The translations under genes were made by a program, and so were the position numbers. Below, piece by piece: positions 1 through 18,805 of a stretch of 27,798 bases of DNA. Source of the stretch: Thermoproteota archaeon (lineage in GTDB: Archaea; Korarchaeota; Korarchaeia; Korarchaeales; Korarchaeaceae); assembly GCA_026986575.1 (NCBI GenBank), contig JALSOH010000010.1:1-27798 (forward strand). Reading direction: 5' to 3'. The notes under the pieces were generated by a model that did no database searches, was not told the origin of the DNA, and saw only the letters and a program-made list of their open reading frames with translations. The stretch's first letter is position 1. Each line of letters opens with the position of its first letter.

Positions 1-1441
1 CCATGGCTTGATCGCTGTCGCCCTGGTATGCCCTCCTAATGATGCTCCAGTACCCGATTTTCTCCCCCCTATCGAGCTTGAACCACTTCCTCTTGGTGAT
101 CCTGGGGCGCAATGTGAACGATCTCCTAAATGTATCGAAATTCACGGTGTCCCCCAAAGTCCTGGAGAGGAGGGCCTCTAGCCCATCATGGTATGATCCC
201 CTGAGCTTATCCTCGATCTCGTCCTCGTGGGAGACCCATGCTAGGAAGTTACCCGGGATCTCAGGTCTGAAAGCATCGGATAGGAGCTCCCTTCCCATAT
301 TCATGGCATCCAATTTAATGGACACTTGGGTTCTACCGTCAGGTAAATCCACGTCATCCTCCGATGATCCATAATAACCTCTCTCCTCAGCAATCATATA
401 AAAATAGTCAACTGAATTCCTTCTTTCATCCTTGTGGGCGAGGTTAGCTAGATAGAGGTCCATCCAGACGGACCCCCTCTGAGCAGGATACACGATGTTG
501 GCGGGGGTGTATTTGAGGGATCCCCCTTCATCTATCCGGAGGAGCCCCTTGATGGCAGACCAAGTAAGCGCACTAACTATCAGGGAAGAGGCCCAGAAAT
601 CGGCGGTGGTCCTCGACTCGGAAAGGAACTCCTCTATACCATCAATGGAGAAGTGCAATACCGAGAGATCCTCTCCGGAGCGAAATATCGTGGAGAGAGC
701 CAGGGTGGACTCGAGATGATCCATCAGCGGATTGTAAGGGGTGCGAGTGTCGGCGGGGAGGGCCTTGTCAAGGGTGAACAGGAGAAGCCCCCTCAAATCT
801 CTATCAGGGAGTTCCTTCGAAAAAGTAGAGTAAAGGCCACTCTCTAGGAAAGCGTAGTAGTACATGAGGTGGAGCCATCTCCACATATAAACGACCGTGA
901 GAACGTCGTAATCCCCAGAGTTTCCAGGAAAGAGGAGATTTGCAAGGGATCTGGATCTTCCCTTATCTTCACATCCTAGAAACCCCCTCAAGGTCGATCT
1001 GAGCTTGGATGGAATGATCACAGAGTAGAACTTGGTCAAACCTACCCTGCTACCGTTGTCCAGAACCATCTGTCCTCCCGAGAAGGACATGAGATCAATC
1101 AAGAGTCTCAAATCTCGAATGATACCCATAACATCCCCGGAGGGTTCGGCTCCGCATCTCAACATCTCATCTAGAGACCTGTTGGAGATCGGATGCTTGA
1201 CAATCCTGCTCTCTTCCCTACCCCATTTCACCTTGAGCTCTCGGAAGTAGAGGACCCTGTCTGCGTGGGAGCTCAGCTGATCGGCCATCCCGACCTTACT
1301 GACCGGTGGCCTCCCACCACAGAGCAGAAGGGAGTAGATCTTATTGCTCAACTCCTTATGACCTATACGGTTAATTATGACAGCCTTGATGAGGGGGTCG
1401 TGAAGGAGTGCCCAAATTCCAATGTGCGAAGAATCACTCAT
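1..1441 (-). CDS. cmr2: Second Cas10/Cmr2 paralog, N-terminal 480 codons, truncated by the window edge
   Basis: Manual translation from ATG 1441 is open to base 1: MSDSSHIGIWALLHDPLIK...MADQLSSHADR...KHPIS...YMWRWL...LPADTRTPYNPLMDHLESTLAL...FSIDGIEEFLSESRTTADFWASS...IVYPAQRGSVWMDLYL. These motifs are colinear with the Cmr2 at 14323-17667 (LLHDPLDK, ADVIASASDR, YLWRTL, LPADSRIPDHGIVDHL, SRKVRDIWASS, LMDLYL). Probably absent from the ORF track because it has no stop in the window. Confidence 0.92.
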   Translation of the reverse strand, partial: MSDSSHIGIWALLHDPLIKAVIINRIGHKELSNKIYSLLLCGGRPPVSKVGMADQLSSHADRVLYFRELKVKWGREESRIVKHPISNRSLDEMLRCGAEPSGDVMGIIRDLRLLIDLMSFSGGQMVLDNGSRVGLTKFYSVIIPSKLRSTLRGFLGCEDKGRSRSLANLLFPGNSGDYDVLTVVYMWRWLHLMYYYAFLESGLYSTFSKELPDRDLRGLLLFTLDKALPADTRTPYNPLMDHLESTLALSTIFRSGEDLSVLHFSIDGIEEFLSESRTTADFWASSLIVSALTWSAIKGLLRIDEGGSLKYTPANIVYPAQRGSVWMDLYLANLAHKDERRNSVDYFYMIAEERGYYGSSEDDVDLPDGRTQVSIKLDAMNMGRELLSDAFRPEIPGNFLAWVSHEDEIEDKLRGSYHDGLEALLSRTLGDTVNFDTFRRSFTLRPRITKRKWFKLDRGEKIGYWSIIRRAYQGDSDQAM

Positions 1442-2461: not shown

Positions 2462-2660
2462 ATTTAAACCCACGCTCCCTTGGAGCCCTTATTGCTTCGA
2501 GGGTCAAGGCCCTAGTGGAGGAGGTTATAGAGAACCCGAACCCGTTTGAACCCACGCTCCCTTGGAGCCCTTATTGCTTCATCCCGGGAGGGGGAGCGTG
2601 CAGAAGTTCATGAGGACCATAATGTTTGAACCCACGCTCCCTTGGAGCCCTTATTGCTTC
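2462..2660 (-). CRISPR. Mini CRISPR array: 3 x 37-nt repeats (GAAGCAATAAGGGCTCCAAGGGAGCGTGGGTTCAAAC), 2 spacers (45 and 43 nt)
   Basis: Repeats at 2462-2498 (2 mismatches, trailer), 2544-2580 and 2624-2660. Orientation taken from the degenerate terminal repeat and leader homology to the main array. Confidence 0.93.
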
Positions 2661-2802: not shown

Positions 2803-3091
2803 TCAGTTTCGGCGTCGCCTAACGAATAAATTACCCGGTGTTCACCTCCTTCAACAGGTCTCGGATACGCAGTAACGCTCACCATAATAGGGAATGGACG
2901 GAAGGTGAAACAAAAAGATATTAATGTATCTCGCTTAGATGATATCATACCACAACTTCGGATATCCTGTGAAGATAATCGTTAAAACTGAGACCGGTTT
3001 ATCTATAATGCATGTGCAGATGAGGGTTGCGCGCGATACTTCCCCCGCACAAGACGGTTCGCCGAATTCGGGTGCGATATCCACGGGTGGT

Positions 3092-5386
3092 ATGGTGCTG
3101 GATGTGGTGATCTCGGTCGCTGGAAGGGGCCTACTTGATCAGAGTTGGGCGAAATACAGGATGGGAGCCTTCTCCATCTGCGCCACGACGCCAGCAATAC
3201 CAATCCTCGCCGATGTGCTTGCTAGGAAACCCGTCAGGAGTGACGATGAGGGAGGGAGCTGCGCACCCCATCCCTACTTGATCATACTCCTCCCCTACTC
3301 ATTAATAGCGGCTTTCGATGATCTCACGTGGGATAGGCTCGAGGACTACTTACGGCTGGGACGTACGGAGGAAGTGGAGGGTCGTCTGAATGCGAGCCTC
3401 CAGAGGGTGCTGGAAAGGGTTCAAGAGTCCTTCAAAGAGCCGAGGGTATTCAGCGAAATATTCGACCCTAGCAGAAGCGAAATGGACGAAGAGCTGCTCG
3501 GGGATTTGAAGACTGCCTTGGAGGCCCTTAACCCTGGTAAATCTCTCGATGACGGAGGGAGGCTCATCCTGGTGCCCGTTCAGGTCTCGGGCACTTTTCC
3601 CCTCAGGTATGAGAAGAGATCCAGCTCAAGTGAGAGGAAGGTAACTTACATGCCCCTGTCGCTAGAGGGCAGTCTCTTGGATCCCTTCGTTAGGGTTTAC
3701 GTGGCCCTCAAGGAGATATGGGCGAGGAATCGGGAGCATGGCATGGATCCGATCATGAGCGTGCACTTCGATTCGTCCTCCGGGATGAACGCGGTCACCC
3801 TCTCGGCTCTCCTCGGAACCCGCTCCTTCACCGAGGTGTACGGCCAAGACCTGCGACTCTACAACACCGACCCGTACTCGGTCGAACTGACCCATCACTG
3901 CGGGAAGATCCCTTCCCGGAGCCGTGGAGAGTGGGAAACCTCGGGTCCATCCGTGGGAATACCGCTCAGGGTATCTGATGCTGAGAGTTTGCTGAGCACC
4001 TTCGAACTGGTGGATGACATGTCCTCCCTGACGGGTATGATCGTGGGGGGATCGATGGCCAGAAGCTTGGACAGACTCTCATCCATGATCGACAGCGTCA
4101 GAAATGACCTCCACTACTTGGAGAAAATATCTGGAGTTATCAGGTCGGATCATGATGCCAGACTGCTGAGCGGATTTCTGGGTTCGCTGAGGAGGATCTC
4201 CTGTGCCCTCAACGAGGTGATCGTGAGCTACGCTCACAAGGAGCTGGCCGGAATCCCGGAGATGGTTCGTAGAATCTATGGCAGGGGAGGCATCTACGAC
4301 CTCCTGAGAAATGAACTCAAGGCCAGGCTTTTCCCCGCCCCGGAAGGACAGGACGGCGGGGTGAGGGACATGGTCGTCATGAGCTGGGACGACGAGGGAG
4401 CGAGGATTGGCTTCAGCTGGACGACCGGCCCCACGTTCGTGTTCCTAGATGCAGCAGCATCTCTCCTCTCCAGAATGTTCGGGGATCTGGATGCGATAGA
4501 GGACGTCGCGGACTTCAATCCCGACGGCCCCTTTAGCGTCGGGCAACTCGCCGGAGGACTGAAAGCGGACTTCCTCCTTTCCCTAGCCATCTACTTCGAC
4601 AGACAGGGTCTGTCCTCTAACCTGTCCTTCCTGCTGGGGGAGCTCGGGCTGAAGGAAGAAGGCATAGAGTTGCTGGCTGGACTAAATGAGAGCGATGAAT
4701 CTGGCGTGAAAGAAGCCATAGGAAAATTTGATGAAGCCCTGAGGGATTTCGTCAGGAACTTCAGGAAGAGGAACAAAACAGATCTGCTCGAGGACCTTCG
4801 GTCCCTTGCTGGGAGGGTTGGATCCCTCCTAGGTGCTCAGGATTCTAGCATAGATCTTTTCAGGGTGTACTACCTGCCCTTATGGTTTCGAAACCTCAAG
4901 AGGGAAAAAATCGATGTCCTCGTAGGTAAAGACGGCAAATGCGATGGAGACATCATGATTAGAGATATACTGAACACTCTACATTCGGGGAATGCAGAGG
5001 AGTTTGTTGAAAGATATGGAGCGAACTTAGAGGAAACCCTTGATTGCCTCATCAGGTTCTTGACGAGGAGGGATGTCTACATCGAGCTGAGCGGAATGGA
5101 AGTTAGCCCTCGTTTCAAGAACTTCTTGGGTGCCATGGCGATCCTCATGAAAGATCGCCCGGAGGAAGTGATCGGAGAAGATGGCGTTATGGAAATAATG
5201 CGACACCTCAGGGCCCATCTCGGACTCACCCACTTCACCATCGTCAACATCCTCTCTCACCCGGATAACATCGAGATAGTCTATGACAGGAGACTTTTTG
5301 AGAGGTTGAACGAACTGGGACGAGAGATGATCGGATCCAAGGATATGGGCAGTCTGTGCGACATCAGGATCCGCCGGCAGCGGTGA
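3092..5386 (+). CDS. csx1: Csx1-family CARF-HEPN ribonuclease, extended (764 aa from likely ATG 3092; the track starts at 2939)
   Basis: IILLPYSL, VPVQVSGTF, HFDSSSGMN (DxTHGxN position) and LYNTDP motifs. C-terminal HEPN R-X4-H motif RHLRAHLG at 5201-5218. GGTGG SD-like sequence before ATG 3092. Confidence 0.82.
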   Translation: MVLDVVISVAGRGLLDQSWAKYRMGAFSICATTPAIPILADVLARKPVRSDDEGGSCAPHPYLIILLPYSLIAAFDDLTWDRLEDYLRLGRTEEVEGRLNASLQRVLERVQESFKEPRVFSEIFDPSRSEMDEELLGDLKTALEALNPGKSLDDGGRLILVPVQVSGTFPLRYEKRSSSSERKVTYMPLSLEGSLLDPFVRVYVALKEIWARNREHGMDPIMSVHFDSSSGMNAVTLSALLGTRSFTEVYGQDLRLYNTDPYSVELTHHCGKIPSRSRGEWETSGPSVGIPLRVSDAESLLSTFELVDDMSSLTGMIVGGSMARSLDRLSSMIDSVRNDLHYLEKISGVIRSDHDARLLSGFLGSLRRISCALNEVIVSYAHKELAGIPEMVRRIYGRGGIYDLLRNELKARLFPAPEGQDGGVRDMVVMSWDDEGARIGFSWTTGPTFVFLDAAASLLSRMFGDLDAIEDVADFNPDGPFSVGQLAGGLKADFLLSLAIYFDRQGLSSNLSFLLGELGLKEEGIELLAGLNESDESGVKEAIGKFDEALRDFVRNFRKRNKTDLLEDLRSLAGRVGSLLGAQDSSIDLFRVYYLPLWFRNLKREKIDVLVGKDGKCDGDIMIRDILNTLHSGNAEEFVERYGANLEETLDCLIRFLTRRDVYIELSGMEVSPRFKNFLGAMAILMKDRPEEVIGEDGVMEIMRHLRAHLGLTHFTIVNILSHPDNIEIVYDRRLFERLNELGREMIGSKDMGSLCDIRIRRQR

Positions 5387-5391
5387 GAGCG

Positions 5392-7080
5392 ATGGATCTG
5401 TTGGGCGTCACCTTCTCCCTCGGAGCGGTCTTCTTCAGGAGAGGTAAGGTGGAGTTCGGCACGAGGGGTTACAGACCCCTGAGGATCCTGAAACCCATCA
5501 GGGAGAGGTGCTCTAAAGTGATTTCAGCCGTGAAGTCCAGTAGGAGCTCTATAGACTATTTGGACATCTGTGGCAGCCTGTTTAAGGCCTTTAGAAAGGT
5601 GAGGGGACTTGACCCCTGCGCATCTGCGCGGATCAGGGAGTCGTGGGATTGGAGGGGAGAGGGTATAGTCTTCCACAGGGCATTCCAGTTGACTAGGACC
5701 GACTATCTCTTCGGCCTGTCCTCCCTGAGGGTACAGGCACCCACCTTGATGAGAAATGACGGCAGCACGGGAAGGCTGCCGGATTGGTCTGACATGGCCC
5801 TAGCTTTCAGGGAGGTGCTGGAGAGGGAACTGAAGGGGGAGATGCCCGACGACAGCTGGAGGTCGAGGTTCTTCGCGGAGGTCTATCTACTCTACAGGAG
5901 CGAGGTCCCGTTCAGGTACCTGAGGAACTTCGGTCCCCTGAACAAGCGGCTCGGATTGACGGATGATATGATAAAGGTCACAATTTCCCCTCTCAGGGGT
6001 GGGTCCCCCGATCTCCTCCCGGACTACAGGAGGATAGCCGCTTATCCAGAGGCTTACATTTCAAAGGATGGGATAATGATCCCCTTCCTGAGATCAGACG
6101 ACAGGAAGGTCAGGACATTTCACGCCTTCGCGAGAAGGGTCAGACGACAGACTGAGCTGGCGGTTGACCTTGCCCTTGCTCTGGATGTGTTCCTGAGATC
6201 GGAGATATCGATCAAGGACGATGATCCGCACTTGGACTTTCTGGTCGGGAAGGTCGCCCTCTCCCCCCGGGTCCTGACTAACCTGTCGAGGCCGGTCAGA
6301 GGGTTGGGCTTCATGAGGAAGGTGCACTCCGAACTGATAGATATCTTGGATCTTGAACGGAGGTACGGGAACTTCGAGGAACAGGTGGTCATGCCGTACG
6401 ACGCCGAGGAGGATGTCGACTATGTGAACGAGTGTCTCCGTCTCCTAGGTAGCGGAACAGTCAGGAGGGGGAGGAGGGCCCTCCTAGTCGGGGACAGGGC
6501 TAGGATCCTGAGAATCTCCGTGCTGAAGTCTAAGGGAGATCACATATTCCCACGGACGAATGAAGCGGCTCTCAGGGTTTTGGGGGCGTTGATAGTAGTT
6601 TACCTCACTAGAGGGCGTTTTAGTGATCTAGAGGAGCTGAAAAGAGCCCTGCAGCCCCTTATAATCTCCAAGGAAATTGAAGAGTTTGCCAAGAGGGTGG
6701 CGTGCAGAGATCCGGGGCTGGGTTTGACTGTCTACGAGATGGAGGTGCTCTTAACGAAGATACTTGAGCTCAGGGAGAAGGTCCCTTATTGGCAAACAAC
6801 GAGGTTGAGGTGGCATCTCGACGATTCCCTGCAGAGGGGTGGTGGAGGGAACCTGCTGAAGCCCCTCTTAGCTGCAGGTTATCTCAGGGAAGGGGTGGCT
6901 CACAGGAGGGGGAAGTGTGAGGGGATGTCCAGCGTGGGGAGGAGAAGGGTGAGGTATTACGTTCCGAACTATGATGAGGAGGTTGTACGGAGGATCGAGA
7001 GGGAGATGGGGGAATTTATATCGATGATGAGGAATGTGGCTAGGGATTACGGGTTCAATCCCGATGCTACTTCTCTATAA
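5392..7080 (+). CDS. Uncharacterised CRISPR-linked protein (562 aa) with probable C-terminal winged HTH
   Basis: Long ORF starting 5 nt after the csx1 stop with a GGTGA SD. The C-terminal LLKPLLAAGYLRE...GRRRVRYY resembles a wHTH wing. Confidence refers to it being a gene; the function is inferred. Confidence 0.75.
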   Translation: MDLLGVTFSLGAVFFRRGKVEFGTRGYRPLRILKPIRERCSKVISAVKSSRSSIDYLDICGSLFKAFRKVRGLDPCASARIRESWDWRGEGIVFHRAFQLTRTDYLFGLSSLRVQAPTLMRNDGSTGRLPDWSDMALAFREVLERELKGEMPDDSWRSRFFAEVYLLYRSEVPFRYLRNFGPLNKRLGLTDDMIKVTISPLRGGSPDLLPDYRRIAAYPEAYISKDGIMIPFLRSDDRKVRTFHAFARRVRRQTELAVDLALALDVFLRSEISIKDDDPHLDFLVGKVALSPRVLTNLSRPVRGLGFMRKVHSELIDILDLERRYGNFEEQVVMPYDAEEDVDYVNECLRLLGSGTVRRGRRALLVGDRARILRISVLKSKGDHIFPRTNEAALRVLGALIVVYLTRGRFSDLEELKRALQPLIISKEIEEFAKRVACRDPGLGLTVYEMEVLLTKILELREKVPYWQTTRLRWHLDDSLQRGGGGNLLKPLLAAGYLREGVAHRRGKCEGMSSVGRRRVRYYVPNYDEEVVRRIEREMGEFISMMRNVARDYGFNPDATSL

Positions 7081-7141
7081 ATTTAAATAGCTAACGAGAA
7101 AACCCTATACTCCTTTTGGCCTACTTAGATTATTAAAGTAG

Positions 7142-7350
7142 CTGAAATAATTCAGGAGAAATTCCCGCGGAGAATGCACCACTATCCCTCACCTCCCGAT
7201 AACTCGGGAGGTGAGAAAGTGGGACCGATATGGCCCCCTTGCCCCGTTGAGTAGCCCTCACGTTGCCTGAGCTAGGAGAGGGATCATCCCCTCCTTCTTT
7301 TTTGTGGGGGGAGGGGCTCCCGGTTTGAGTTACACAGACCCCTTTTTTAT
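7142..7350 (+). ncRNA. Candidate structured non-coding element (run of hairpins ending in a T-tract)
   Basis: Perfect 12-bp stem 7188-7215 extended by CCACT/AGTGG. Further stems CCCCTCC/GGAGGGG and GGTTTG/CAGACC, followed by TTTTTT. Confidence 0.35.
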
Positions 7351-7366
7351 TCAACCACCCTAGATA

Positions 7367-7484
7367 TAGGGGTGCGCAGGACGGAGGCCCGTGTGGCCCG
7401 CCCGCCCCACCCAGGAAGGTGAGGGGGTGTGGCTGCTGCCCTCCTTCCGATGACTCCCGAGGTCGGGGCGCCCGCGCACCCTTA
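7367..7484 (+). ncRNA. Candidate ~115-nt structured RNA of unknown family
   Basis: GC-rich island closed by TAGGGGTGCGC/GCGCACCCTTA. Inner stem GGAcGGAGG (7379-7387)/CCTCCtTCC (7440-7448) and internal hairpins with G-U pairs on the + strand. TTTTAT box about 20-25 nt upstream. Confidence 0.5.
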
Positions 7485-9029
7485 ACTCTTATCCCCCAAG
7501 TTTTCACTTTCCATCATGAAATTGGAAATCCTAGACAGCAAGTCGGAGAAAGGAGACTCCCATTCGAACCTCTGTAATCTCTCGTTCCACAGCTCATCCG
7601 GAATCAACCAGAGGGGGTTTACGTGTATTACATCCGTCGCAACAAGCAAGCGTCTCCCTAGGATCGTGTACAGGGTGGAGATGAAATCTCCCTTCTCGTC
7701 CTTCCCAACGAACACCATACCTGCGCAACCCCTGAACCCCGGACCCTCCATGTAGTGCAAGGTGCATGCAGATATCGGGGTGAAAATCCTGGCTACTTTA
7801 GGGAACTCTTCCTCTTCACACCATATTTTCACGTATATGAGATCCAATCCCTTGGGGACCTCCACCATGTACTTGCGCATTATGAACTTATACTCCCTGA
7901 GCCTGGAGAGCCTGTACCTTGGGGAGCTAACTCCCATCGCCTCAACATCCCTTATAGTCACCCTTCCACTTACCATTACGTGATTGAGGATTCTGAGGTC
8001 GTCCCTCAAGAGCCTGAATCTCTCCCTCTCCCCATCTCGTCCCTCGCAGAAACGGCCCTGCCTCTGGATGTTCCCTTGCAGAGCCCGACCGATCACCTCC
8101 CACAGATGCGCTTTGGAGCCGATTCGAAAGCCGTGATAGGAGAGCTTCGACTTGAACACCCCGAATCCGAGGGATCTAAATTCTCTAATCAGGTGAGGAA
8201 GGGATTCTTGGGGCATCAAGAGCAGGGCCAAGGCATCGACTTCGGAGGATGCGGGCACCACTTGGGTGTAGGTGAAGGGAAAGTCCCAGAACGCGTTTCT
8301 GAGTTCTCTCACGTTAGGATACTCGATAGAGATTGTAGATAGACCTAACTTTCTCGTGTTGACGTTCTCAGGTCCGAAAATAAATCCCAAGAGCCTGAGT
8401 TTCCTTAACGCTCTAGATATGGTCGGCTCACTGAGCCCGTACTTCTCCTTTATCCCCTTGGGCTTGATCGTGGGATCATCGGTCAGGGCCCTCAGGACGG
8501 TCATCTCGGATTGGTTAAACTCCACCTCCTCTACCACTGCCCTTCTGAGCAGGGAGAAGTAGATGAAGAAATCGGGGTTCCCTAGCTCGGAGGACTCGTT
8601 CATTATGGAGATCAGGGAACCGACAAGAGTAAGCAGGGTTCCTCGGCTCAGAGCCTCAAGCATATAAGGGTCGTAATTGGAGAACTTAGGGTGGGGAGGA
8701 AGCCTCGCTCTCTCCCATAATTTTCTGCTCAGCCCCGAGGCCACCCAAGCCAAGTCGTGGACTTGGGGAACCAATTCGTCCAACTCTGAGGATATCATCA
8801 TGGAGAGAACCTCCTTTCTCACGATCCTCCTCCCAGCATCCAGTCCCCCACCCTCGAATACCTCGGCCGATATGCGCAGAGTGTCGTTCTTAAGGGAGGA
8901 GGTCCTGTGAATCCTCAGGGGCTCTTCCACCACTTCAACTTTAGCAGGGGGACCCCTCTTCAGGGGCAGCATGAGCGCTCTCTTCAGATGTTCGATCTCA
9001 GAGCTCAAAATGCTAGCTAAGTTGTACAC
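7482..9029 (-). CDS. Transcriptional regulator-like protein with two tandem Lrp/AsnC-type wHTH units
   Basis: First HTH: SEMTVLRALTDDP...YGLSEPTISRALRKLRLLGFI plus the linker NTRKLGL. Second unit: DDLRILNHV...RYRLSRLREYKFI. TTTTAT box about 25 nt upstream of the GTG start. Confidence 0.75.
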   Translation of the reverse strand: MYNLASILSSEIEHLKRALMLPLKRGPPAKVEVVEEPLRIHRTSSLKNDTLRISAEVFEGGGLDAGRRIVRKEVLSMMISSELDELVPQVHDLAWVASGLSRKLWERARLPPHPKFSNYDPYMLEALSRGTLLTLVGSLISIMNESSELGNPDFFIYFSLLRRAVVEEVEFNQSEMTVLRALTDDPTIKPKGIKEKYGLSEPTISRALRKLRLLGFIFGPENVNTRKLGLSTISIEYPNVRELRNAFWDFPFTYTQVVPASSEVDALALLLMPQESLPHLIREFRSLGFGVFKSKLSYHGFRIGSKAHLWEVIGRALQGNIQRQGRFCEGRDGERERFRLLRDDLRILNHVMVSGRVTIRDVEAMGVSSPRYRLSRLREYKFIMRKYMVEVPKGLDLIYVKIWCEEEEFPKVARIFTPISACTLHYMEGPGFRGCAGMVFVGKDEKGDFISTLYTILGRRLLVATDVIHVNPLWLIPDELWNERLQRFEWESPFSDLLSRISNFMMESENLGDKS

Positions 9030-9091: not shown

Positions 9092-10429
9092 TCAACGTTC
9101 TCCCCAAACACCCCTCAGGTAGGAGAGGAAATCCTCCAGCTTCTTCATGCTAGGTACCGGGGCGTGGTAACTGCTGACCCTCTTCCGCCCTCCACGCTTC
9201 CCACCTCTCCACTCGACGGTGACAGCCAACTCAGAGCCTTCAGGCAAGTAATCAGAGGTTATGACGAAGACCATAGGACTGTACAACTGATCTGCCACGG
9301 AAACTACCTTTGCAAATACCGGGGAGGCCCTTCTACCTCTCTGAACGCTTAGCCTCCCGCTCCTCCATGTGATGAAGGCCTTGGCTTTTCTCCCCCCCTT
9401 CCTCCTGCTGTAGTAGTTGTGGGGGAGGCCGAACACGGACCACTCCAAGGAGAGCGCCCCCTCACCCCAGGTCCCCCACATGATCCTACTCACGACATTA
9501 AGATACTGTAAGGTCCTCTGACGGATGGGCCTTCTCTCTTCCTCTTTGTCACGCATCTCCATGCATCTCGACTTGTCATTTGGGTTCTCCCTGAACCTCC
9601 TGAACCTGAGGGCCAGTTCCTTCAATGCCTCCACTGAATCATCGTAAGAAGGCCCTATCACCGGATGGAATGACTCAGCATGCAGCTCGCCGAAGTTATC
9701 CACATCTCCCCCTTCAGGCAGGCTGTCGCATCCGGCCTCACGGGAATAACCCAAGACGAGACTCCCAAGCTCCTCTAGAAGCGACCTCACATTATCGTCG
9801 TTGAAGGGATGGGAGGTCAGCTTTACCCCCTCGACCTCCGGGGCATCAATCAGCGACACGCTGCCCATCCCTCTCCTCTGCCTCCTACCTATTCCACCTA
9901 GGGCGCCCCATACCCCTATAACAGTTCTCAGTATGTCCCTCTCTAACTTGCTGGATCTCCAGTCAAAATAAACCAGCAGATCGAACTCGCCCTTGAGACC
10001 TGCAGCATCCGCCGGAATTCCATATCCGAGGTAATTCACGCAGTATCTGGCTACCCTTCTATCACCACGGGAGGATTCTTTTTCCTTGCTCGAGCTCACC
10101 TCTATCTCGCAGCACCTTCCGAAGATCTCGGAAGCCTTGACCCTTCCTAGGCCGTCGTCTTCAATCCTTAACTTGGCAAGGGAAGCTCTGCTGGTACTGC
10201 CTAAGATCCTAGCCTCCATTCTACTCACGCATTTCAGCGATCTACTGCTCGACATGCCCAGATTCCTCAGGATACCATTTGCTGTAACTCTGAACCACCA
10301 CCTGATGATACCCCTCAGGCTTGAAACCCTTATCTCCGGGCTTGGGTTCTCTCCCTCATCCCCAGCCCCGTAGGCGAAGGCGGGGGTGATCAGCCTCACC
10401 CGGAACCTGTCCCCTCTATTTGCTCCCAT
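9092..10429 (-). CDS. cmr1: Type III-B RAMP Cmr1 (likely ATG 10429; the track starts at 10501)
   Basis: LITPAFAYGA, IRVSSLRGIIRWWFR, LGGIGRRQRRGMGS, FGLP and RRASPV motifs. Confidence 0.93.
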   Translation of the reverse strand: MGANRGDRFRVRLITPAFAYGAGDEGENPSPEIRVSSLRGIIRWWFRVTANGILRNLGMSSSRSLKCVSRMEARILGSTSRASLAKLRIEDDGLGRVKASEIFGRCCEIEVSSSKEKESSRGDRRVARYCVNYLGYGIPADAAGLKGEFDLLVYFDWRSSKLERDILRTVIGVWGALGGIGRRQRRGMGSVSLIDAPEVEGVKLTSHPFNDDNVRSLLEELGSLVLGYSREAGCDSLPEGGDVDNFGELHAESFHPVIGPSYDDSVEALKELALRFRRFRENPNDKSRCMEMRDKEEERRPIRQRTLQYLNVVSRIMWGTWGEGALSLEWSVFGLPHNYYSRRKGGRKAKAFITWRSGRLSVQRGRRASPVFAKVVSVADQLYSPMVFVITSDYLPEGSELAVTVEWRGGKRGGRKRVSSYHAPVPSMKKLEDFLSYLRGVWGER

Positions 10430-10442
10430 GGTCAATTCTCCA

Positions 10443-11558
10443 TCATCTCCCGGCGTTCCTCTGCTTGAAGATCCCATAGTCAGAGCTGGTCTTGGCCCCA
10501 AGTCCGGTGAAGGTCAATACATCGTTCAGTAACCTCTCCACTACATCCCTATAATCAGCATCCCGTAGGACCAGCAGGAACTTGAAGGTAACGCCTTTCT
10601 CCACCACGGGAAGGAAGAAAGGCTTAGGCTCGCCCCAATCACCAGGTGGTTGAGGATTATCCGGCCTGCTGTAGTAGTGGAGGTAGTGGGGATTCACGAC
10701 ATCGACCCCCAAAATGGGGCTACCTTCAGGAGCCACCGGGAATCCCCCAATAGATATCAGCTTTCCCATGGACTTTTTACTCCCGAAAAGATCAAATAAT
10801 GCCCTGATACGATTTAAGACATCTTCTTGAACTTTCTTCTCCCTAAAACTAGCGAGGATCTCATCGAGCTCTTTCTTGGATAGATCCTCCAATTTGGAGG
10901 TCTTGCGTGAGCGCTGACCTGCTTCCTCACCATCGACCTCCACATCCAAAAGGGACAGCAGCTCCGAATCGCTGCCCCGCTTTACAAGATCTTCCACTAT
11001 ATCTGAAAGCAGTCTGCTCCTCATCGCTCCCTTGAGCGTGGATCCCGGTATCCACGGGACCCCGAAAGGTGCCAGAGAGGCTATCCCCGATTCCCAGGCA
11101 CTCAAGCCCCCGATCCCCACGTAAAATCTCTTCTCCGTCGTATACTCTTTCTGAATTATATTGTCGCGCCCGTAAATGTCCTCCAGCGCTCGGGTCAGTT
11201 CATTTACATAATTTATGGAGGACTGGGGCAGGATCGCTTTTCCCGAAACGTAGTGCCAGTGTGCCTTCTGTATGCTATCCTTCTTAATACCGACGAACAT
11301 GTAGAGATAATCCTTGATAGGATCCCCCTTCCCTGACCCCGACCCATCCCCGGTTTTACTGTATCTCCGTTTACCCTTATCACCCCCTTGACCGCCCGCC
11401 TTATTTTTGCCGTCTACCCCGAGGGAGGCAGGGGGCGGTAATACGTAGGAAATGATCCAAGGGTTCAGCTCCCCTCCTCCTTGGCTCTTGGACACCTCAG
11501 ATACTATACTCAGCAGCCTATACAGCGAAACCGATTCGTCGTTCTTTTCTGACCTCAA
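10443..11558 (-). CDS. cmr6: Type III-B RAMP Cmr6
   Basis: GVPWIPGSTLKGAMR, DVVNPHY, PGDWGEPKP and GLGAKTSSDYG motifs. Confidence 0.94.
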   Translation of the reverse strand: MRSEKNDESVSLYRLLSIVSEVSKSQGGGELNPWIISYVLPPPASLGVDGKNKAGGQGGDKGKRRYSKTGDGSGSGKGDPIKDYLYMFVGIKKDSIQKAHWHYVSGKAILPQSSINYVNELTRALEDIYGRDNIIQKEYTTEKRFYVGIGGLSAWESGIASLAPFGVPWIPGSTLKGAMRSRLLSDIVEDLVKRGSDSELLSLLDVEVDGEEAGQRSRKTSKLEDLSKKELDEILASFREKKVQEDVLNRIRALFDLFGSKKSMGKLISIGGFPVAPEGSPILGVDVVNPHYLHYYSRPDNPQPPGDWGEPKPFFLPVVEKGVTFKFLLVLRDADYRDVVERLLNDVLTFTGLGAKTSSDYGIFKQRNAGR

Positions 11559-12073
11559 CCTGCTATTTCGCCTCCCTCCCCTATCCTTGCATGTGCCAGC
11601 ACTTTCAGTGCCTCTGAGTATCTGAGAATCTCGTCACTTATCCAAGAGATCTCCTTCATGTCCTTCTCTAGCAACTCATCCAGTATTTCCTTAGATAGCC
11701 TCTCGTCGCACTTCTTCTTATGTACCTCAGATCTATCACTTTCACTATCTCGTTTTTCCCCCTCCAGTTTTATCAGATTTCTTCCCTTCAGCCACTTCAT
11801 AATGGATTCTACCAGCATTAGAGCAGCTTCGGTCTTCTTGCTTTCCTTACCCATACATCTCTTCAACAGGTAAGCCACGGTCATCAGAGCCCCGCTATTC
11901 AGAATCATGCCCGGAAGCCTCTGAGCCAGGTTTTTGAGCTCCTCCTTGCCCTCATCTCCCAGCCTTGAAATAACTCCATCGATCAAATCATTAACAATCT
12001 TGAACAATTCTTTCTCTCCCAGCAGCATCTCTAACTCCTGTCTCTCATTTCCCTGCATCTCCATCCCCCTCAC
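11555..12073 (-). CDS. cmr5: Type III-B small subunit Cmr5 (Cas11)
   Basis: Helical protein with LPGMILNSGALMTVAYL, located between cmr4 and cmr6. Confidence 0.9.
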   Translation of the reverse strand: MRGMEMQGNERQELEMLLGEKELFKIVNDLIDGVISRLGDEGKEELKNLAQRLPGMILNSGALMTVAYLLKRCMGKESKKTEAALMLVESIMKWLKGRNLIKLEGEKRDSESDRSEVHKKKCDERLSKEILDELLEKDMKEISWISDEILRYSEALKVLAHARIGEGGEIAG

Positions 12074-12076
12074 CCC

Positions 12077-13120
12077 TCAAGATTCCTCCGAACCTCCACC
12101 CTGCACCTCCCCCTTTGCCGTCTTGCACCAGCAGGATTCCCCGTTCCCAGGTGCCAGGATCTCCGCTATACCTAGGCCTGTCGTCGTATCGCCCCCGAAC
12201 TGCAAGTATCCCCTCACTATCTTACAGATGTTTTCCCTAACTCCCCCCTCATTTCGGGCGAAGACGAAAGAGTAGAGGAAGGTCTCGGGCGGCAGGTTCT
12301 CCTGATACCAGAGGCCTCCTTCCTTCACAGTGTTGGTGCTGGGATCTATGCGTATGTGAGGCACTACCTCTATCCCCCTCGAGAGGAGATGCTTGAACAT
12401 CTGATCGTGAACTATAACGAGCCTCCCTCTGATCTGCGAGGGGAGATTTTCCTCGAATATTCCCAGGAACTCAAGGAAGTTGTTGAGGTCAGTGTCGGCC
12501 CTCGTTATTCTCAGGCCGACATCTTCCAAGACAACGAACCTGCCGGAATTATCGGAACCTTTATTCAAGCTTATCACTACTTCGTTCTCCGATGAAGATC
12601 CCTGAACATCCTTACCCCCAGTTCCCTCCTTACCGGGTACGATGGCATCTCCCACGCTCAAATTCACTGCTAGGTTATTTAAATTGAGTCCACAGCTTAC
12701 ACCATCGCTCTCACCTTTGAGGAGTTCCGTCATCATTTTAACGTCCCTTATGAACCTGTTTATAAGGAAGGGCGAGGTTATCCAGGCGTAAATTCCCCTC
12801 AGGCTCTTTACTGGAAAGAACAGGAGTTTGGCGTCGGTGAACACAGCCATACCCATTGCCTCACTTCCCTTCTCTGGTTCGGGACCGAAGATCTTTTCTA
12901 TTACCTCGTCTACATCATTCACTCTGCTTTTCTCGAGCTTCACCTTGGCCCAAGACCTCAATGCTCCCTTGATGCTGCTGCCGTAGATGACGGGTAATCC
13001 AGTATGAGCCTCCCTCTGAATGGGGAGGTCCACTATACCGGACACTCTCGCCCCACTACCCGCGTGGAGCGGGGTGAGGGATCTTATCAGGTAGGGGATT
13101 CCCAGCTCGTACACCCTCAA
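12077..13120 (-). CDS. cmr4: Type III-B RAMP Cmr4 (likely TTG 13120 after a GGAGGTGA SD; the track starts at 13228)
   Basis: TPLHAGSG...VDLPIQRE (catalytic Asp position present), GSSIKGALR, GGLWYQENLP and QFGGDTTTGLG motifs. Confidence 0.95.
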   Translation of the reverse strand: MRVYELGIPYLIRSLTPLHAGSGARVSGIVDLPIQREAHTGLPVIYGSSIKGALRSWAKVKLEKSRVNDVDEVIEKIFGPEPEKGSEAMGMAVFTDAKLLFFPVKSLRGIYAWITSPFLINRFIRDVKMMTELLKGESDGVSCGLNLNNLAVNLSVGDAIVPGKEGTGGKDVQGSSSENEVVISLNKGSDNSGRFVVLEDVGLRITRADTDLNNFLEFLGIFEENLPSQIRGRLVIVHDQMFKHLLSRGIEVVPHIRIDPSTNTVKEGGLWYQENLPPETFLYSFVFARNEGGVRENICKIVRGYLQFGGDTTTGLGIAEILAPGNGESCWCKTAKGEVQGGGSEES

Positions 13121-13124
13121 GACA

Positions 13125-14330
13125 TCACCTCCTGAGTTTGACCACCACGGGGGAACCGAACCCCCTGTCCCAGTAAAGGGACAGCCTCCAAAATTCGAGC
13201 AAAAACTCCATCTTATCGGCCCCTTCACTCATACGAAGGAAGTAGACCGTGCCAGGAGGAACGGCGGAGTACATCTTCCTAGCTCTGCCCAATGGGATGC
13301 TCCATCCGCTCAACCTTCGAGGGGCCGAAGTCACCACTCGGGGTCCTATCCATTCCGGCCTTCCGGGAAGCCCGCTGATATCCGGGAGTGTCGTGGTCCT
13401 CCACTTATCTCTCATGTATATGGCCGGGGATACCAGGACCACCTTCAGCACCTCCCCTGGCTGCAGTTCTTCTCCCCCTCTGAACTGCTGGATGTGCCTC
13501 CCACTGTCAGTGAATATCCCCGCTGGCCTGCCCTCTCCTCCCAATCTCTCGATCCCGTGAACGTCAGGAATGACCTCCTTATCGGCCATACCTATGGAGA
13601 TCATCGCATACCCCATTCTCCTATACCTGAGATCTCTCTCCCCTTCTTGCACCCTGATGTGGACCGTGCGATAAAGCATGCCCTCCTCGACGCTGCCCCT
13701 CTCTTCATCCATCTTTATCCCCAGCCTCTCCTCGGGGTATATCTTGGGAGCGCCCCTCAGTAGCAGGATACCCAAGCTGTCTCCGTAGTCATCTATGTCT
13801 CTCAGCCTGATCAGCGGTAACTCAAAGTGATCGTAGAGATAGATGCTGTCCGGGGAGAGTACTATTGGAGGTAGATCGTTCCTGTAGCTCTCACCGACAA
13901 GCATTTCATGAGGTGTGGCTGACTGACCATCATCTCCTTCCCTTACCCTCCCGCTCATCGATTTATCCCAAGCCTCAGCCTTCAAGGCTCTGAGCTTCAT
14001 CTCATCCTCCCTTGCCCACACCACCTCCAGATCCCTTGGAGCAGGCACCCACAACTCCTCACTGAAGTAGATGAGGGGGCCGTAAAACGCGTACTTTATG
14101 TATCTCCCCTTCTCCTCCTCGGACTCCACATCACCCCCACCGCTGCTATTAAGAACGGAGTCCAGACCATGCTTCCTGACGAGAAGGGAGAGAACGGCTC
14201 CGGAGACTGTCCAAGGTGTGGGATGCGGCATGGATCTGGAGCTCCCTCCAAGCGGGACCCCTATCCCTCCCCCGAAAAAGAGGGAGTCGAAGGGCTCAAT
14301 CAACACGACCTTAGTCTCGATCTTAACCAC
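13125..14330 (-). CDS. cmr3: Type III-B Cmr3 (Cas5-like)
   Basis: IEPFDSLFFG, PWTVSGA, RLGGEGR, AVPPGTVY and RGFG motifs. Confidence 0.94.
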   Translation of the reverse strand: MVKIETKVVLIEPFDSLFFGGGIGVPLGGSSRSMPHPTPWTVSGAVLSLLVRKHGLDSVLNSSGGGDVESEEEKGRYIKYAFYGPLIYFSEELWVPAPRDLEVVWAREDEMKLRALKAEAWDKSMSGRVREGDDGQSATPHEMLVGESYRNDLPPIVLSPDSIYLYDHFELPLIRLRDIDDYGDSLGILLLRGAPKIYPEERLGIKMDEERGSVEEGMLYRTVHIRVQEGERDLRYRRMGYAMISIGMADKEVIPDVHGIERLGGEGRPAGIFTDSGRHIQQFRGGEELQPGEVLKVVLVSPAIYMRDKWRTTTLPDISGLPGRPEWIGPRVVTSAPRRLSGWSIPLGRARKMYSAVPPGTVYFLRMSEGADKMEFLLEFWRLSLYWDRGFGSPVVVKLRR

Positions 14331-17300
14331 GGATCAGCACCTCCCCAATGAAGAGATCTAAGAGACGGTGAATATGAATCATCTGAGTTCTCTCCAATTC
14401 TACTGGCATCTTATACAGCATGAGATCCTTCTCGAAACCGAGATGCCATTCTTCATACTCTTTCTCCTCTTTAGAAAGTAAATCTATGTACATCTTCACG
14501 AACTCTTCCTCCACCTCGGAGTTCCTCTCCTCCGTGCCATGGAGGTTCCTCCTGATGGAGAGTCTCACGAGAGGCTCAATGCTTTCTGGTTTGTCTGGCT
14601 CGTATGCCTTGGCACCGAATCTCTCCATATACTCCAGAAAGTCCTTCACGAAACTCCTGCTCAGAATCTCTTCGGCCTGTATGACATCCCTTACCTTAAG
14701 GAGCAGGGAAGATGCCACACCTCTTAGTAGGAGATCCCCTGATATGACTGCCCTTTGATAGTGGCCGCCTCTAGTCATCTTAGCGAAAGAAACTCTGTTT
14801 CTACTTCCCGGCGGAGAATCGGGAGACCCATCCTTAGCTACAGCCAACTCCTCAGAAACGGCGCGCAGCATCTCACTCATGGGAATAAGCCTGTGGGCAA
14901 CGACCACCCCGCCACTGACCGTGGCCTTCTCTCCCATGCCCAGGTGTAGCCTTCCTCTAACCCTGAGGAGATGTCCCCTGTAAGCCCGGATCACCCTCTC
15001 AACGAAGTCAACCGCTTTTGAAGCCGGTACCGCAGCGAGAAGCTCGTCTCCAGCCGAGTAGAGGGTTATCCCGCCCACCTCCTCCACTATGTCCGGGTAT
15101 ATTAGGGAGAGATCCCTTAGAATGGAGCTCATATTCCTGTGAAGGGAGGGGGTCACCAGCCTGTAGAGCCCCTCCAACTTCGAACCAACCTCTTTGAGGA
15201 GTTCCGTCATTAGCGCTTTCGCATTCGATCTGAACTTACATTGAGGTTCCCTGAGTTCTGCGGGATCCCCACTTGTCGTCCTCAGGCAGTACACCCTGTC
15301 GACTAGCTTTGCATTTGTTTCCACGAACATCATACCGGATATCCACTTGCCGACTAAGTCTCCGTCCAACTGGACTATGGCAACGTAGTTGGAGAGTTTC
15401 TCCTCTAAACCTCTGTCGATGAGGAACTTGATGAGCTCATCAACAGAATTAGTTCCACATCCCAGCTTCTCCATGGCTGTCCTGACGTTCTTCCAGGTGC
15501 TTGGGAAGAGCAACGTCCCGGGTATCTCCTCCACTCCTTCCAGCCTGCTTGCAAGCTTCATCCCCAGCATTTCCCTTTCTCTCATGGTTATAAGGGCCTC
15601 CGAGATTTCTATGTATTTCCTCCCGAGTTCGGCTATCAGATCCTCGAGCGTTGAGAGCCTCCTGTCCTGTGTGCTCTTCCTTTTGGACCTACACTCCGCT
15701 GCATCAACTAGGGCGTTGGCCATAAGGACCGTCAGTCTCCTCCCGGAATTCTCCTCAGGATCCGAATTAGACTCCTGAACTATCTCCTCCCTCTTGGGGG
15801 CCACAGCCACGTCATCTAGGGTGGGTATCTTACCTATCGCTTCCTTCAGGGGGGCTGATAGTTTTTCCCCCTCACTGACAATCTCCTCAAGTTTGTTCCG
15901 CTCTATGCCTAACGCAACGGACCAGGCGGCGATAAGGCTATCTCTCCTCATTAAGAGCCTCTTCAGCACACCAACAGCACAAAGGGGCTCCCTACCACTG
16001 AAAAGCCATCTCTCTCCTATCCCCATACCCTTCTCCATCGCCTCCACGAGGTTCCTCCATCCTTCCTGCGACCACCCACCCTCTCCTACAAACAAAGGGT
16101 TTCTGGAACCGCAGAGCATGCACCTCCTGCTTACTTTCCCCCCTCCCTCACTTCCTGGCTCAACCTCATGCTCGAACACCTCACTCAGCTTAGCGTACCT
16201 CATCCTCGACTGGAGGACCAGGAAGGCGATTGGATAGAAGGTGGTCACCTCAATGTTGTATTTCAAGCGGCCTTTCTCCCCTAGGTATTCGTTTATCGCA
16301 ATCATATCAGCAAACTTCTCGATGAGAGAGGCTATCTTTTTCACTCCTTTGACCTCGTATCTCCAAGTAGCTATTTCACTTGGGATGAATTCGTTCAGTT
16401 GTTCCTTCAGTACTTCGGAGCGACCCTCCACGTTCCCGCTACTTTGTCTGAAGAGAGGGTACCTAAAGATAATGTGGCCCATCCTGAGGGACAGTGGATA
16501 TGGAAGACCTCTGAGCTGCCTCTCCACCACTTCCCTCAACTCATTGCTGAGATCCAGCTTGCTTAGAAGCCCCTCCAGTATGATGAGCTTCCCCAACTCC
16601 TGGAAGAAGGACTCAACCGCACGGCGTATTCTCCCTTCCAGCTCCTCTATCATTCCTTCCGGTGCGAAGAAGAGGACATGATCCGGTAGAGATGGAACTA
16701 AGAGCTTCCTGAAGAAGTTTCCCGGGGATTCGGCACCTTCCCCCTTCCCATCACCCCAGAGCCCGAGCACCTCATCCCACGACAGGACCCCTTGGGTGAG
16801 GAGGTAGAGGTCCATGAGCGGGTTTCCCCTCACATCGGGGAATATGAGGGAGTCAGGTCCGAGCTCCTCAGCGACTATCCTAGTAACAAGGAGGGTAAGG
16901 AGGCTTATCAAGTAACTTGAGGCCCATATGTCCCTCACCTTCCTACTATGGGAAAGGAACTTGCCGACGCCTCCTATGTCAATGCTCACCAAGGAAATCC
17001 TCTCATTCCTCAGGAGGGCTGGGACGAGCGCCGTCGATGTGACTAGGTGATCCACGATCCCATGATCCGGGATCCTAGAATCAGCAGGTAGGAAGGAAAC
17101 AACGTGGGTCAGGTTCCTCTCGTCACCGAGGACAAGGGAAGTGTCAAGGGTCCTCCAGAGATAGAGGAACTGCTTTCTCCTAAAATCTTCACCATGGAAC
17201 CTCCCCCGAAGTTCCTCAAGCTTCCTCCTAACCGCTACTGAAATGGGACAGTTCTCGAGGACGCCGTTTTTCAAGATGCAAGGGGTCTTTGAAAGCCTGA

Positions 17301-17667
17301 CTATCTCCTCCCCTATTTTCCCTCCCGGCAGCTCTCTATATGGCTCATCGTCGCATTCTCGGGGTTTTCCTCCTCTCAAGATCACCAAGGGCGTAGAGGA
17401 GAGTAGATCGACACCATCTAGGGGGTGATAAAACTCGGGTTTACCAACCCAGTCCGCCACAAAGGAGGAGATCAGGGGATTCCTGTCGGAGGCGGATGCA
17501 ATTACATCGGCCTGCTTAGGCAAGTCAAGGTGATTTAGGGACAATCCAAGGGCAGATCTCAGGTTACCAGATATCTCCTCATGTTCCTTTAGTTGGAAAA
17601 TTTTGTCTAAAGGATCGTGGAGGAGCACGTAAAGCTTGGCTTCCCACATATTGTTCGCTTCAGGCAT
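14323..17667 (-). CDS. cmr2: Cas10/Cmr2 (1114 aa) with HD domain and a variant palm motif AGDE
   Basis: LLHDP, PADSRIPDH, SRKVRDIWASS and QLDGDLVG motifs. YSAGDELLA sits at the position of canonical YAGGDD. Confidence 0.96.
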   Translation of the reverse strand: MPEANNMWEAKLYVLLHDPLDKIFQLKEHEEISGNLRSALGLSLNHLDLPKQADVIASASDRNPLISSFVADWVGKPEFYHPLDGVDLLSSTPLVILRGGKPRECDDEPYRELPGGKIGEEIVRLSKTPCILKNGVLENCPISVAVRRKLEELRGRFHGEDFRRKQFLYLWRTLDTSLVLGDERNLTHVVSFLPADSRIPDHGIVDHLVTSTALVPALLRNERISLVSIDIGGVGKFLSHSRKVRDIWASSYLISLLTLLVTRIVAEELGPDSLIFPDVRGNPLMDLYLLTQGVLSWDEVLGLWGDGKGEGAESPGNFFRKLLVPSLPDHVLFFAPEGMIEELEGRIRRAVESFFQELGKLIILEGLLSKLDLSNELREVVERQLRGLPYPLSLRMGHIIFRYPLFRQSSGNVEGRSEVLKEQLNEFIPSEIATWRYEVKGVKKIASLIEKFADMIAINEYLGEKGRLKYNIEVTTFYPIAFLVLQSRMRYAKLSEVFEHEVEPGSEGGGKVSRRCMLCGSRNPLFVGEGGWSQEGWRNLVEAMEKGMGIGERWLFSGREPLCAVGVLKRLLMRRDSLIAAWSVALGIERNKLEEIVSEGEKLSAPLKEAIGKIPTLDDVAVAPKREEIVQESNSDPEENSGRRLTVLMANALVDAAECRSKRKSTQDRRLSTLEDLIAELGRKYIEISEALITMREREMLGMKLASRLEGVEEIPGTLLFPSTWKNVRTAMEKLGCGTNSVDELIKFLIDRGLEEKLSNYVAIVQLDGDLVGKWISGMMFVETNAKLVDRVYCLRTTSGDPAELREPQCKFRSNAKALMTELLKEVGSKLEGLYRLVTPSLHRNMSSILRDLSLIYPDIVEEVGGITLYSAGDELLAAVPASKAVDFVERVIRAYRGHLLRVRGRLHLGMGEKATVSGGVVVAHRLIPMSEMLRAVSEELAVAKDGSPDSPPGSRNRVSFAKMTRGGHYQRAVISGDLLLRGVASSLLLKVRDVIQAEEILSRSFVKDFLEYMERFGAKAYEPDKPESIEPLVRLSIRRNLHGTEERNSEVEEEFVKMYIDLLSKEEKEYEEWHLGFEKDLMLYKMPVELERTQMIHIHRLLDLFIGEVLIRG

Positions 17668-17789
17668 CGAACCGATATACCTCCATTACTAAAATCATAA
17701 CTGTTCAATCTTTTCATTTCCATGTGCTTTTATGAAATGAACTGCATCACGGTTGACCCGAAGGCCCATGTTAGATGCTGATTGATCCG

Positions 17790-17932
17790 GTTCGAGGTCG
17801 ACAGCGATTTTTGAACTTTGGTAACGGAATGCTTTATATAGAGCTGTGTGAAGAAGATATTTATTAGTCATGAAACTAAGTATCTCTCGAGGGAGATAGC
17901 CGACTTTGGTTAAGTGGGGGATCTCCACATCG
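17790..17932 (+). promoter_or_regulatory. Leader/promoter of the main CRISPR array, divergent from cmr2
   Basis: GTTCGAGG at 17790, TTTATATA at 17833-17840 (100 nt before repeat 1) and TAGTCATGAAAC at 17865-17876. Confidence 0.8.
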
Positions 17933-18610
17933 GTTGCAATAAGGCCCTTGAATGGGGTAGGGTTCAAACGCCTGCTGAGATTGAGAAGGCTGAGGTTCCT
18001 AAGCCTGCCACTGTTGCAATAAGGCCCTTGAATGGGGTAGGGTTCAAACATCGTCCCGACTAAGCCGAGGAGTAAGGAGCCCTACACCCAACTCGTTGCA
18101 ATAAGGCCCTTGAATGGGGTAGGGTTCAAACGGTTCGGCATTCACGATGCGTATACTAGCAATGTGGACTCGTGTTGCAATAAGGCCCTTGAATGGGGTA
18201 GGGTTCAAACCGGTATCAGCGTTGAGGGATACCAATTGCAGTGGTAAGTTCATGTTGCAATAAGGCCCTTGAATGGGGTAGGGTTCAAACAACTATGTGT
18301 AATTATGACCAACCATCCCCTTTCAATGTCCAGCAGGTTGCAATAAGGCCCTTGAATGGGGTAGGGTTCAAACCGCTTGCTTCCACGTACTTGTGATGAA
18401 AGAGCAGGTTTGTGACCTCGTTGCAATAAGGCCCTTGAATGGGGTAGGGTTCAAACCATTCTTCCCTTTTTCAGCTTTAACTCACTAGCTCTAACTTCGG
18501 AGTTGCAATAAGGCCCTTGAATGGGGTAGGGTTCAAACTTCCCAAAGACAGCCCCGAAGACGGTGTTTCCCGCCGTGGTCGTTGCAATAAGGCCCTTGAA
18601 TGGGGTAGGG
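17933..18610 (+). CRISPR. CRISPR array: 8 full 37-nt repeats (GTTGCAATAAGGCCCTTGAATGGGGTAGGGTTCAAAC) plus one 3'-degenerate trailer repeat; 8 spacers of 42-46 nt
   Basis: Repeats start at 17933, 18013, 18095, 18174, 18254, 18337, 18420, 18502 and 18581. The last matches only the first 30 nt. Confidence 0.98.
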
Positions 18611-18805
18611 GGAAATTACTACAATATTCTCTATATTACTTAATTTCATTTCTTCCTTTACTGATTAAGGTGTCGTGAGAGATCCAGATTTGCCCTTATT
18701 AGCGACAAGGTACCGGAAGGAGGAAGTTTACTCAACAGTTTTATTGCTCCCGTAAATTTTCTCATACTTCTCATATTATACATTTTAATTAGATTAGCGA
18801 TCACC

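Follow-up and report, generated by a model that had tools for sequence, protein, structure and literature searches.

To our knowledge, the on/off control of archaeal CRISPR-Cas operons is known in very few lineages, mainly through Csa3 in the Sulfolobales. In defence islands more generally, regulators of the BrxR/CapW type, composed of a winged helix-turn-helix (wHTH) and a WYL domain, accompany differing defence systems. Csa3a, a MarR-like factor encoded beside csa1, is described as an activator of adaptation genes (PMC4333418), and CorA-family proteins associated with type III CRISPR loci are listed as cluster 29 in a survey of accessory genes (PMC6546367). Here, a pair of neighbouring genes is described from a korarchaeal genome (Thermoproteota archaeon, assembly GCA_026986575.1, contig JALSOH010000010.1, positions 1 to 27,798, forward strand). 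The first gene, X, is the open reading frame (ORF) at 5392..7080 and the second, Y, is the ORF at 7482..9029; coordinates refer to the whole analysed stretch of 27,798 nucleotides (nt), hereafter the window, unless another locus is named.

The X-Y pair, which is unrelated to Csa3, accompanies adaptation modules as well as type I-A and type III modules in a little-studied phylum of hyperthermophile-like archaea. The pairing of the two genes and their linkage to CRISPR are solid. Our reading, to which we assign a probability of roughly 0.45, is that X and Y may jointly form a DNA-binding regulator devoted to the gene module beside them. If so, cas control in these archaea could be approached through the pair, which would also supply a new domain for the input of ligands or signals. 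Should this prove wrong, the two genes nonetheless remain strongly linked to CRISPR; a term search of the main text of the accessory-gene survey (PMC6546367) did not find them, and full-text literature searches turned up no published description of the pair.

Several likenesses and differences place the pair among described regulators. Csa3a and Csa3b of type I-A systems in the Sulfolobales join a CARF domain to a MarR-like wHTH; like them, X lies at the edge of cas modules, occurs as one paralogue per module, and carries its winged helix at the C-terminus. Unlike them, X yielded no CARF domain in scans with Pfam, NCBIfam, or PADLOC; it has the wHTH but not the CARF-wHTH fusion of Csa3. Its N-terminal domain is instead an antiparallel α+β fold without a good match, and it has an obligate partner, Y, of ~510 amino acids (aa). 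Weak PADLOC matches to Csa3 and CasR came solely from the HTH stretch of Y. Y itself resembles the Lrp/AsnC proteins (feast/famine regulatory proteins), with LrpA and PH1519/PH0140 matched from the HTH into the effector-binding domain, twice along its length. In contrast to classical members of ~150 aa, Y has an extra N-terminal domain of 165 aa, two tandem modules, and a W-x-IP-x-LWDE tail. Compared with BrxR/CapW regulators, X-Y has neither a WYL domain nor a sequence relation, and it is a two-protein unit of one archaeal phylum. On the regulator reading, the pair would be a cas-linked winged-helix regulator in the form of an obligate two-protein unit with two orphan domains.

Strict pairing of X and Y

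The two genes lie in the window as follows.

5392..7080, plus strand: X, start codon ATG at 5392, stop codon at 7078-7080, 562 aa (ORF and translation)
7482..9029, minus strand: Y, 515 aa, an N-terminal domain without a recognised family followed by two Lrp/AsnC-like modules (each wHTH plus RAM-like)

Twenty larger regions were fetched in addition to the window, and their ORFs were called, clustered, and scanned with Pfam and PADLOC. In all 21 loci, Y adjoins X with at most two ORFs between them, although their relative orientation varies among convergent (often with overlapping 3′ ends), divergent, and tandem. A separate scan with hidden Markov models covered 30 short loci, of which 27 had Y no more than 1.5 kb from X; these loci are largely the same places as the 21 and so do not form an independent count. 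Among the three without Y nearby, two are cut by a contig or flank end where cas6 would intervene (as it does in L034), and the third is a weak, remote match.

The same co-occurrence is seen at the level of genomes. A profile search detected X in 26 genomes, out of 40 in the class and 43 in the phylum, with several paralogues per genome. Full-length Y was present in all 26 X-bearing genomes, and two further genomes of the 40 in the class had Y with X not detected. The X family is narrow; when 1.84 billion representative proteins were searched exhaustively with HMMER, 15 proteins were returned at E<=0.001 (query included, 279-583 aa), and the family is confined to one small archaeal phylum of 43 species genomes.

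The pairwise distances between X proteins correlate closely with those between the corresponding Y proteins (Mantel r 0.90 over 18 pairs, a value reached in none of 2000 permutations and inflated by relatedness), and both genes have therefore duplicated and diverged as one unit. The two proteins are nevertheless not homologous by profile comparison, as hhalign returned no relation between them (probability 0.15%). A complex prediction with full-length Y and residues 285-562 of X scored 0.00, which gave no verdict and weighs neither way.

The convergent spacer between X and Y (7081-7481, 400 nt) is ~72-74% identical over ~220 nt to that of locus L037 from a second species, and it contains five terminator-like hairpins versus a mean of 0.8 in shuffled controls. 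The 124-aa ORF at 7133-7507 was considered as a possible third gene conserved between X and Y, but was rejected, as it has only a weak partial match to the ORF at this place in L037 and none in L039.

A variant arrangement occurs in L039 (5797-8870) and L043 (8219-11292), where one X is accompanied by two tandem Y paralogues with a small conserved ORF (91-135 aa) between the Ys. These X-Y-Y loci have no cas genes nearby; a VWA-domain gene and a gene for a 700-aa unmatched protein are adjacent.

Domain layout of X and Y

X matched nothing by sequence in Pfam, NCBIfam, PADLOC, or the PDB, and neither did its family profile when compared with the PDB. In Pfam, there was no match to X at E<=0.01 and none of relevance at E<=1 for 16 family members, and no names for X or Y were found in database sources. 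An alignment of the 15 HMMER proteins plus one paralogue (A1) was used as input for AlphaFold2, which produced a confident model (mean pLDDT 84.0, pTM 0.73) with the following parts.

5392..6096, plus strand: N-terminal α+β domain of X, residues 1-235, orphan fold with a mainly antiparallel sheet (AlphaFold2 model)
6109..6198, plus strand: long basic helix of X, residues 240-269 (30 residues), consensus RRKxRR...AVDLALGLKVF, a helix in both models
6226..6702, plus strand: helical middle of X, residues 279-437, helices in the model; together with the tail, the part retained in a short paralogue
6730..7047, plus strand: C-terminal winged helix of X, residues ~447-552, two helices and a two-strand wing (structural comparison)

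Strands and helices alternate up to residue 235, and helices prevail from residue 240 onward. This agrees with an earlier note on this DNA, made by eye from the letters, which had described a strand/helix N-terminal part followed by long helices; the four peptides it quoted are indeed present in X, at residues 94, 220, 253, and 309. The antiparallel nature of the N-terminal sheet is evident in strand hairpins 99-105/109-120 and 221-223/227-235. When the whole model and the N-terminal domain were searched with Foldseek against the PDB and against the viral models of BFVD, nothing was found at E<=0.001. The ESM Atlas likewise provided no usable match for the whole of X or for residues 1-285, its own model being poor (pLDDT 0.34).

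At the C-terminus, the modelled structure conforms to the wHTH layout, a three-helix bundle with a recognition helix and then a β-hairpin wing, and an earlier helix (368-385) also aligns in the winged-helix match. As modelled, the tail is a winged-helix fold outside every named HTH family, which bears out the wHTH-like tail suggested in the note. Conservation is distributed unevenly along the protein. In A1, R248 of the basic helix is invariant and R251 and D259 are nearly so, while in a wider alignment of X (A2) it is R251, D259, and L262 that are invariant. All invariant columns of A1 fall within residues 60-292, and hence in the N-terminal domain, the basic helix, or the first residues of the helical middle. 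Beyond residue 292, only L352, K379, and D383 are conserved (nearly invariant), and none of these is within the winged helix. The net charge of residues 1-240 is +13.

The note had further compared X with the soluble domain of CorA effectors of type III systems. There is a resemblance in the accessory-like position of the gene and, by eye, in the succession of a strand/helix domain and a long helix. CorA proteins, however, carry a GMN motif after their first transmembrane (TM) segment. X has neither TM helices nor a GMN motif, and Pfam CorA matches neither X nor its 15 relatives. In the structural searches with the whole model or with the N-terminal domain, there was no CorA chain among the 50 matches listed for each. 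The highest 19-residue Kyte-Doolittle mean in X is 1.47, with no TM-like stretch at the C-terminus, in line with the note's view of a soluble protein that lacks the two-TM hairpin. X is thus not a member of the CorA family. The CorA reading is corrected accordingly, and the locus should not be counted among CorA/SAM-AMP (S-adenosylmethionine-AMP) systems.

The strongest clue to the function of X is its Lrp-like neighbour Y, which was absent from the note. Residues 174-217 of Y match Pfam HTH_24 above the cut-off (E 5.2e-6), and some members of the Y family exceed the cut-off for Pfam HTH_AsnC-type. A profile built from 20 Y proteins of ~510 aa (alignment A3) matches LrpA (1i1g, residues 3-103) at profile positions 177-273 with E 3.9e-7. 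A second match is to PH0140 (9w4v, residues 26-120) at positions 336-424 with E 1.6e-4, a region in which Lrp is also matched. An HTH of the AsnC type followed by a RAM/ACT-like effector domain is thereby found at two separate places, and Y is therefore composed of an orphan N-terminal domain and two Lrp/AsnC-like modules. The N-terminal domain (165 aa) matches no recognised family, and the W-x-IP-x-LWDE tail is conserved in A3.

Genomic settings and candidate role of the pair

Core cas genes, judged within the fetched flanks, are carried by 11 of the 21 loci. Type I-A operons with X placed after cas3 occur in L034, L035, and L042; type III-B or III-D genes lie beside the pair in the window, L037, L046, and L048; and L038, L041, and L051 combine cas6, adaptation genes, and a four-gene module of unrecognised kind. 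The eleventh, L040, is a decaying locus with a split cas1. In three loci (L045, L047, and L053), the pair is accompanied only by a CARF5-type gene, while six loci (L036, L039, L043, L044, L049, and L050) have no cas gene. The remaining L052 is a 3.4-kb contig and uninformative. CRISPR arrays in the flanks of X-Y are confined to cas-linked loci, namely the window, L035, L038, and L046.

A tree of X, obtained with a quick maximum-likelihood search only, groups the paralogues by kind of neighbour (III-B plus csx1, I-A in two of three cases, the Cas6 module, CARF5, the gene pair f23/f24, and a short form of X), with SH-aLRT support of 98-100. Each clade retains one kind of neighbour across species, whether III-B plus csx1, I-A, Cas6 plus the f14-f17 module, CARF5, or f23/f24. 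A single genome, G000, contains three intact full-length copies of X, one pseudogene, and one short form. The decayed copy, at ~875900-878910 of contig C4 (L002, L040), has both X and Y fragmented with in-frame stops, in the company of cas2, cas4, and a cas1 split into two ORFs; it appears that the whole CRISPR locus is decaying along with its X-Y pair.

The short form (~315-350 aa) consists of the C-terminal half only, matching profile positions ~279-520, and is divergently paired with its own Y in L049 (8457-11421) and L050 (8346-11252). Most genomes of the genus contain it together with that Y, at a conserved non-CRISPR site adjacent to thioredoxin-like and dehydrogenase genes, while the long copies are mostly cas-linked. 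The helical and winged-helix half of X plus Y is therefore the common core, and the N-terminal domain is specific to the long copies.

The diversity of these settings bears directly on the note's central proposal, in which X would be a soluble protein that resembles CorA, senses a type III messenger (cyclic oligoadenylate or SAM-AMP), and alters transcription via its winged helix. The CARF neighbours and the extra N-terminal domain lend this a little support, and the soluble nature, the coupling to a csx1-like gene, and the winged helix all stood, whereas the likeness to CorA did not. Some relatives do lie beside III-B or III-D genes as expected, but other full-length ones lie beside type I-A operons, with Cas6 and adaptation genes, or in loci without a cas or CARF gene. 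The ground for refutation named in the note, homologues unlinked to type III systems, is thus borne out in part, and X is unlikely to be a sensor devoted to type III messengers. Moreover, X has no CorA, CARF, or SAVED match by sequence (Pfam, NCBIfam, PADLOC), and residues that might contact a ligand, such as E163, D226, and R113, are not invariant in A2. Together with the lack of a GMN motif, a TM segment, and a CorA chain among the fold-search matches listed, this makes the proposal improbable.

The type I-A loci raise another idea, that X could be a structural subunit of a Cas effector complex, such as a missing I-A large subunit, given that it follows cas3. The gene order in L034, L035, and L042 (a small gene, cas7, cas5, a gene for a 350-380-aa unmatched protein, cas3, X) does show the slot that cas8a occupies in model I-A operons. 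However, the 350-380-aa gene (f11) is already available as a candidate large subunit, the X family is also found with III-B, with III-D, and without any cas genes, and X travels always with Y rather than with a given effector. We regard a subunit role as very improbable.

What we infer instead is DNA binding, contact between X and Y, and regulation of transcription. X and Y would act jointly on DNA to regulate the transcription of the neighbouring module specifically. In the window, this module would comprise the csx1-X operon together with the cmr operon that converges on it and has Y at its end. The helical and winged-helix half of X would form the common core of this regulator, and the N-terminal domain would be an input or effector domain added in cas-linked copies. 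The winged helix of X, its basic conserved helix, the N-terminal charge of +13, and the two Lrp/AsnC-like modules of Y all argue for this regulator. So do the constant neighbourhood of the two genes, their divergence in step, and the clade-specific neighbours, as well as the decayed cas locus of G000 in which X and Y are fragmented together. Lastly, the position at the edge of cas operons and the module-specific paralogues resemble what is seen with Csa3a.

A more elaborate version of this regulator is speculative but conceivable. X-Y might represent an undescribed class of CRISPR-linked control module in one archaeal phylum. In it, the N-terminal domain of X would be a novel sensor or effector fold, joined to a more ancient wHTH pair with a housekeeping role (the short X and its Y). 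Such a module might make the expression or DNA targeting of the attached cas module depend on a signal, for instance an infection or a small molecule, through a complex between X and the tandem Lrp-like protein, which may itself be ligand-binding.

Two further alternatives are unlikely to a similar degree. One is that X-Y is an architectural factor of CRISPR DNA that would bind leaders or repeats and thereby assist the integration of spacers or the transcription of pre-crRNA; Cbp1 in the Sulfolobales and integration host factor in bacteria serve as comparison. It would fit the winged helices in both proteins, the arrays flanking the pair in the window, L035, L038, and L046, and the adjacency of pairs to cas6 and adaptation genes in L034, L038, L041, L042, and L051. 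It does not readily account for the six loci without arrays or cas genes, nor for paralogues that share just 20-30% identity, yet are found near repeats with common sequence words in the window, L038, and L046.

The other sees X-Y as an independent module, for defence or of a toxin-antitoxin-like kind, which simply clusters with CRISPR-Cas in defence islands; the N-terminal domain of X would then be the effector and Y its controller. Several divergent copies per genome, a patchy presence (26 of 43 genomes), and one pseudogenised copy are consistent with this, as are genes for PIN, VapB-like, BrxD-like, and DUF4143 ATPase proteins among the neighbours; the N-terminal domain is also the most conserved part of X in A1. 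On the other hand, no PADLOC model matches X, the catalytic-looking residues are not invariant across the wider family (A2), the clade-specific neighbours are kept across species, and the short form behaves as a conserved core-like gene. The regulator reading is preferred over both.

Other genes of the window and associated modules

The remaining features of the CRISPR-Cas locus are as follows.

2462..2660: mini CRISPR array, three repeats, upstream of the csx1-X operon
2939..5386, plus strand: Csx1-like CARF/HEPN gene upstream of X, with weak CARF matches and an R-x4-H motif
9092..17667, minus strand: type III-B cmr operon with cmr2, cmr3, cmr4, cmr5, and two RAMP genes (Pfam Cmr2_N, Cas10 palm2, Cas_Cmr3, RAMPs, Cas_Cmr5)
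17930..18622: CRISPR array, nine repeats of ~37 nt (array detection)

Translational coupling of X to the csx1-like gene, as the note had proposed, holds up. The start of X follows the stop codon of the upstream 815-aa ORF (ending at 5386) after a gap of 5 nt, a Shine-Dalgarno-like GGTGA at 5382-5386 overlaps that stop codon, and the gene order is kept in L037 with a gap of 15 nt. The identity of the upstream gene is indicated by weak CARF matches, with PADLOC models giving E 0.004 for Csm6 and E 0.0044 for Csx1. Its orthologue matches Pfam Csx1_CARF at E 5.6e-4 and 20.7 bits, under the family cut-off of 24.7. Both csx1-like orthologues share a C-terminal R-x4-H motif, read by eye (RHLRAH and RNLVAH). 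The true start of the gene is probably ATG 3092, because the N-terminus of the orthologue aligns from residue 54 of the 2939..5386 ORF. A comparison of the csx1 upstream regions of the two orthologous loci for a promoter footprint revealed no clear block, and an Rfam scan of the window matched no family.

Within the cmr operon, cmr2/cas10 spans 14323-17667 and cmr3, cmr4, cmr5, and the two RAMP genes span 9092-14330, all on the minus strand; Y follows on this strand, 62 nt downstream of the final cmr gene. The arrays at 2462-2660 and 17930-18622 have related repeats in opposite orientation, and the smaller is located between an AT-rich stretch and the csx1-like gene. Two ORFs (17695-18051 and 18044-18292) overlap the larger array, whose repeats begin at 17930, and are therefore probably not genes. 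A second ORF with Cmr2_N (2-1441, minus strand, Pfam E 3.3e-14) runs off the start of the window, and a second type III locus therefore abuts the III-B locus.

Two conserved gene sets were also encountered beside X-Y in other loci. The first is a four-gene module encoding proteins of ~660, 175-190, 440, and 280-310 aa (L038 1457-6258, L041 9457-14128, and L048 11612-16357), for which there is no Pfam or PADLOC match. It adjoins X-Y, Cas6, and Cas1-Cas2-Cas4, followed in L041 by a Cas3-like helicase, and it may be a divergent effector module that is missed by current models. The second is the gene pair f24/f23 (~400 and 440-470 aa), found once beside a Cmr operon (L046 5493-8055) and twice in one locus without recognisable cas genes (L044 10065-12624 and 14633-17105); this may be a further type III accessory pair.

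Elsewhere in the window, a 280-aa coiled-coil protein (20411-21253, plus strand) matches the PADLOC model C3a181, named 'Diadenylate cyclase' in the library, at E 1.1e-24, with weak coiled-coil matches only in Pfam. Finally, an ATPase gene with AAA_14 and DUF4143 is present at 25891-27099 (plus strand), and a relative of it (cluster f27) flanks the I-A/X-Y locus L034.
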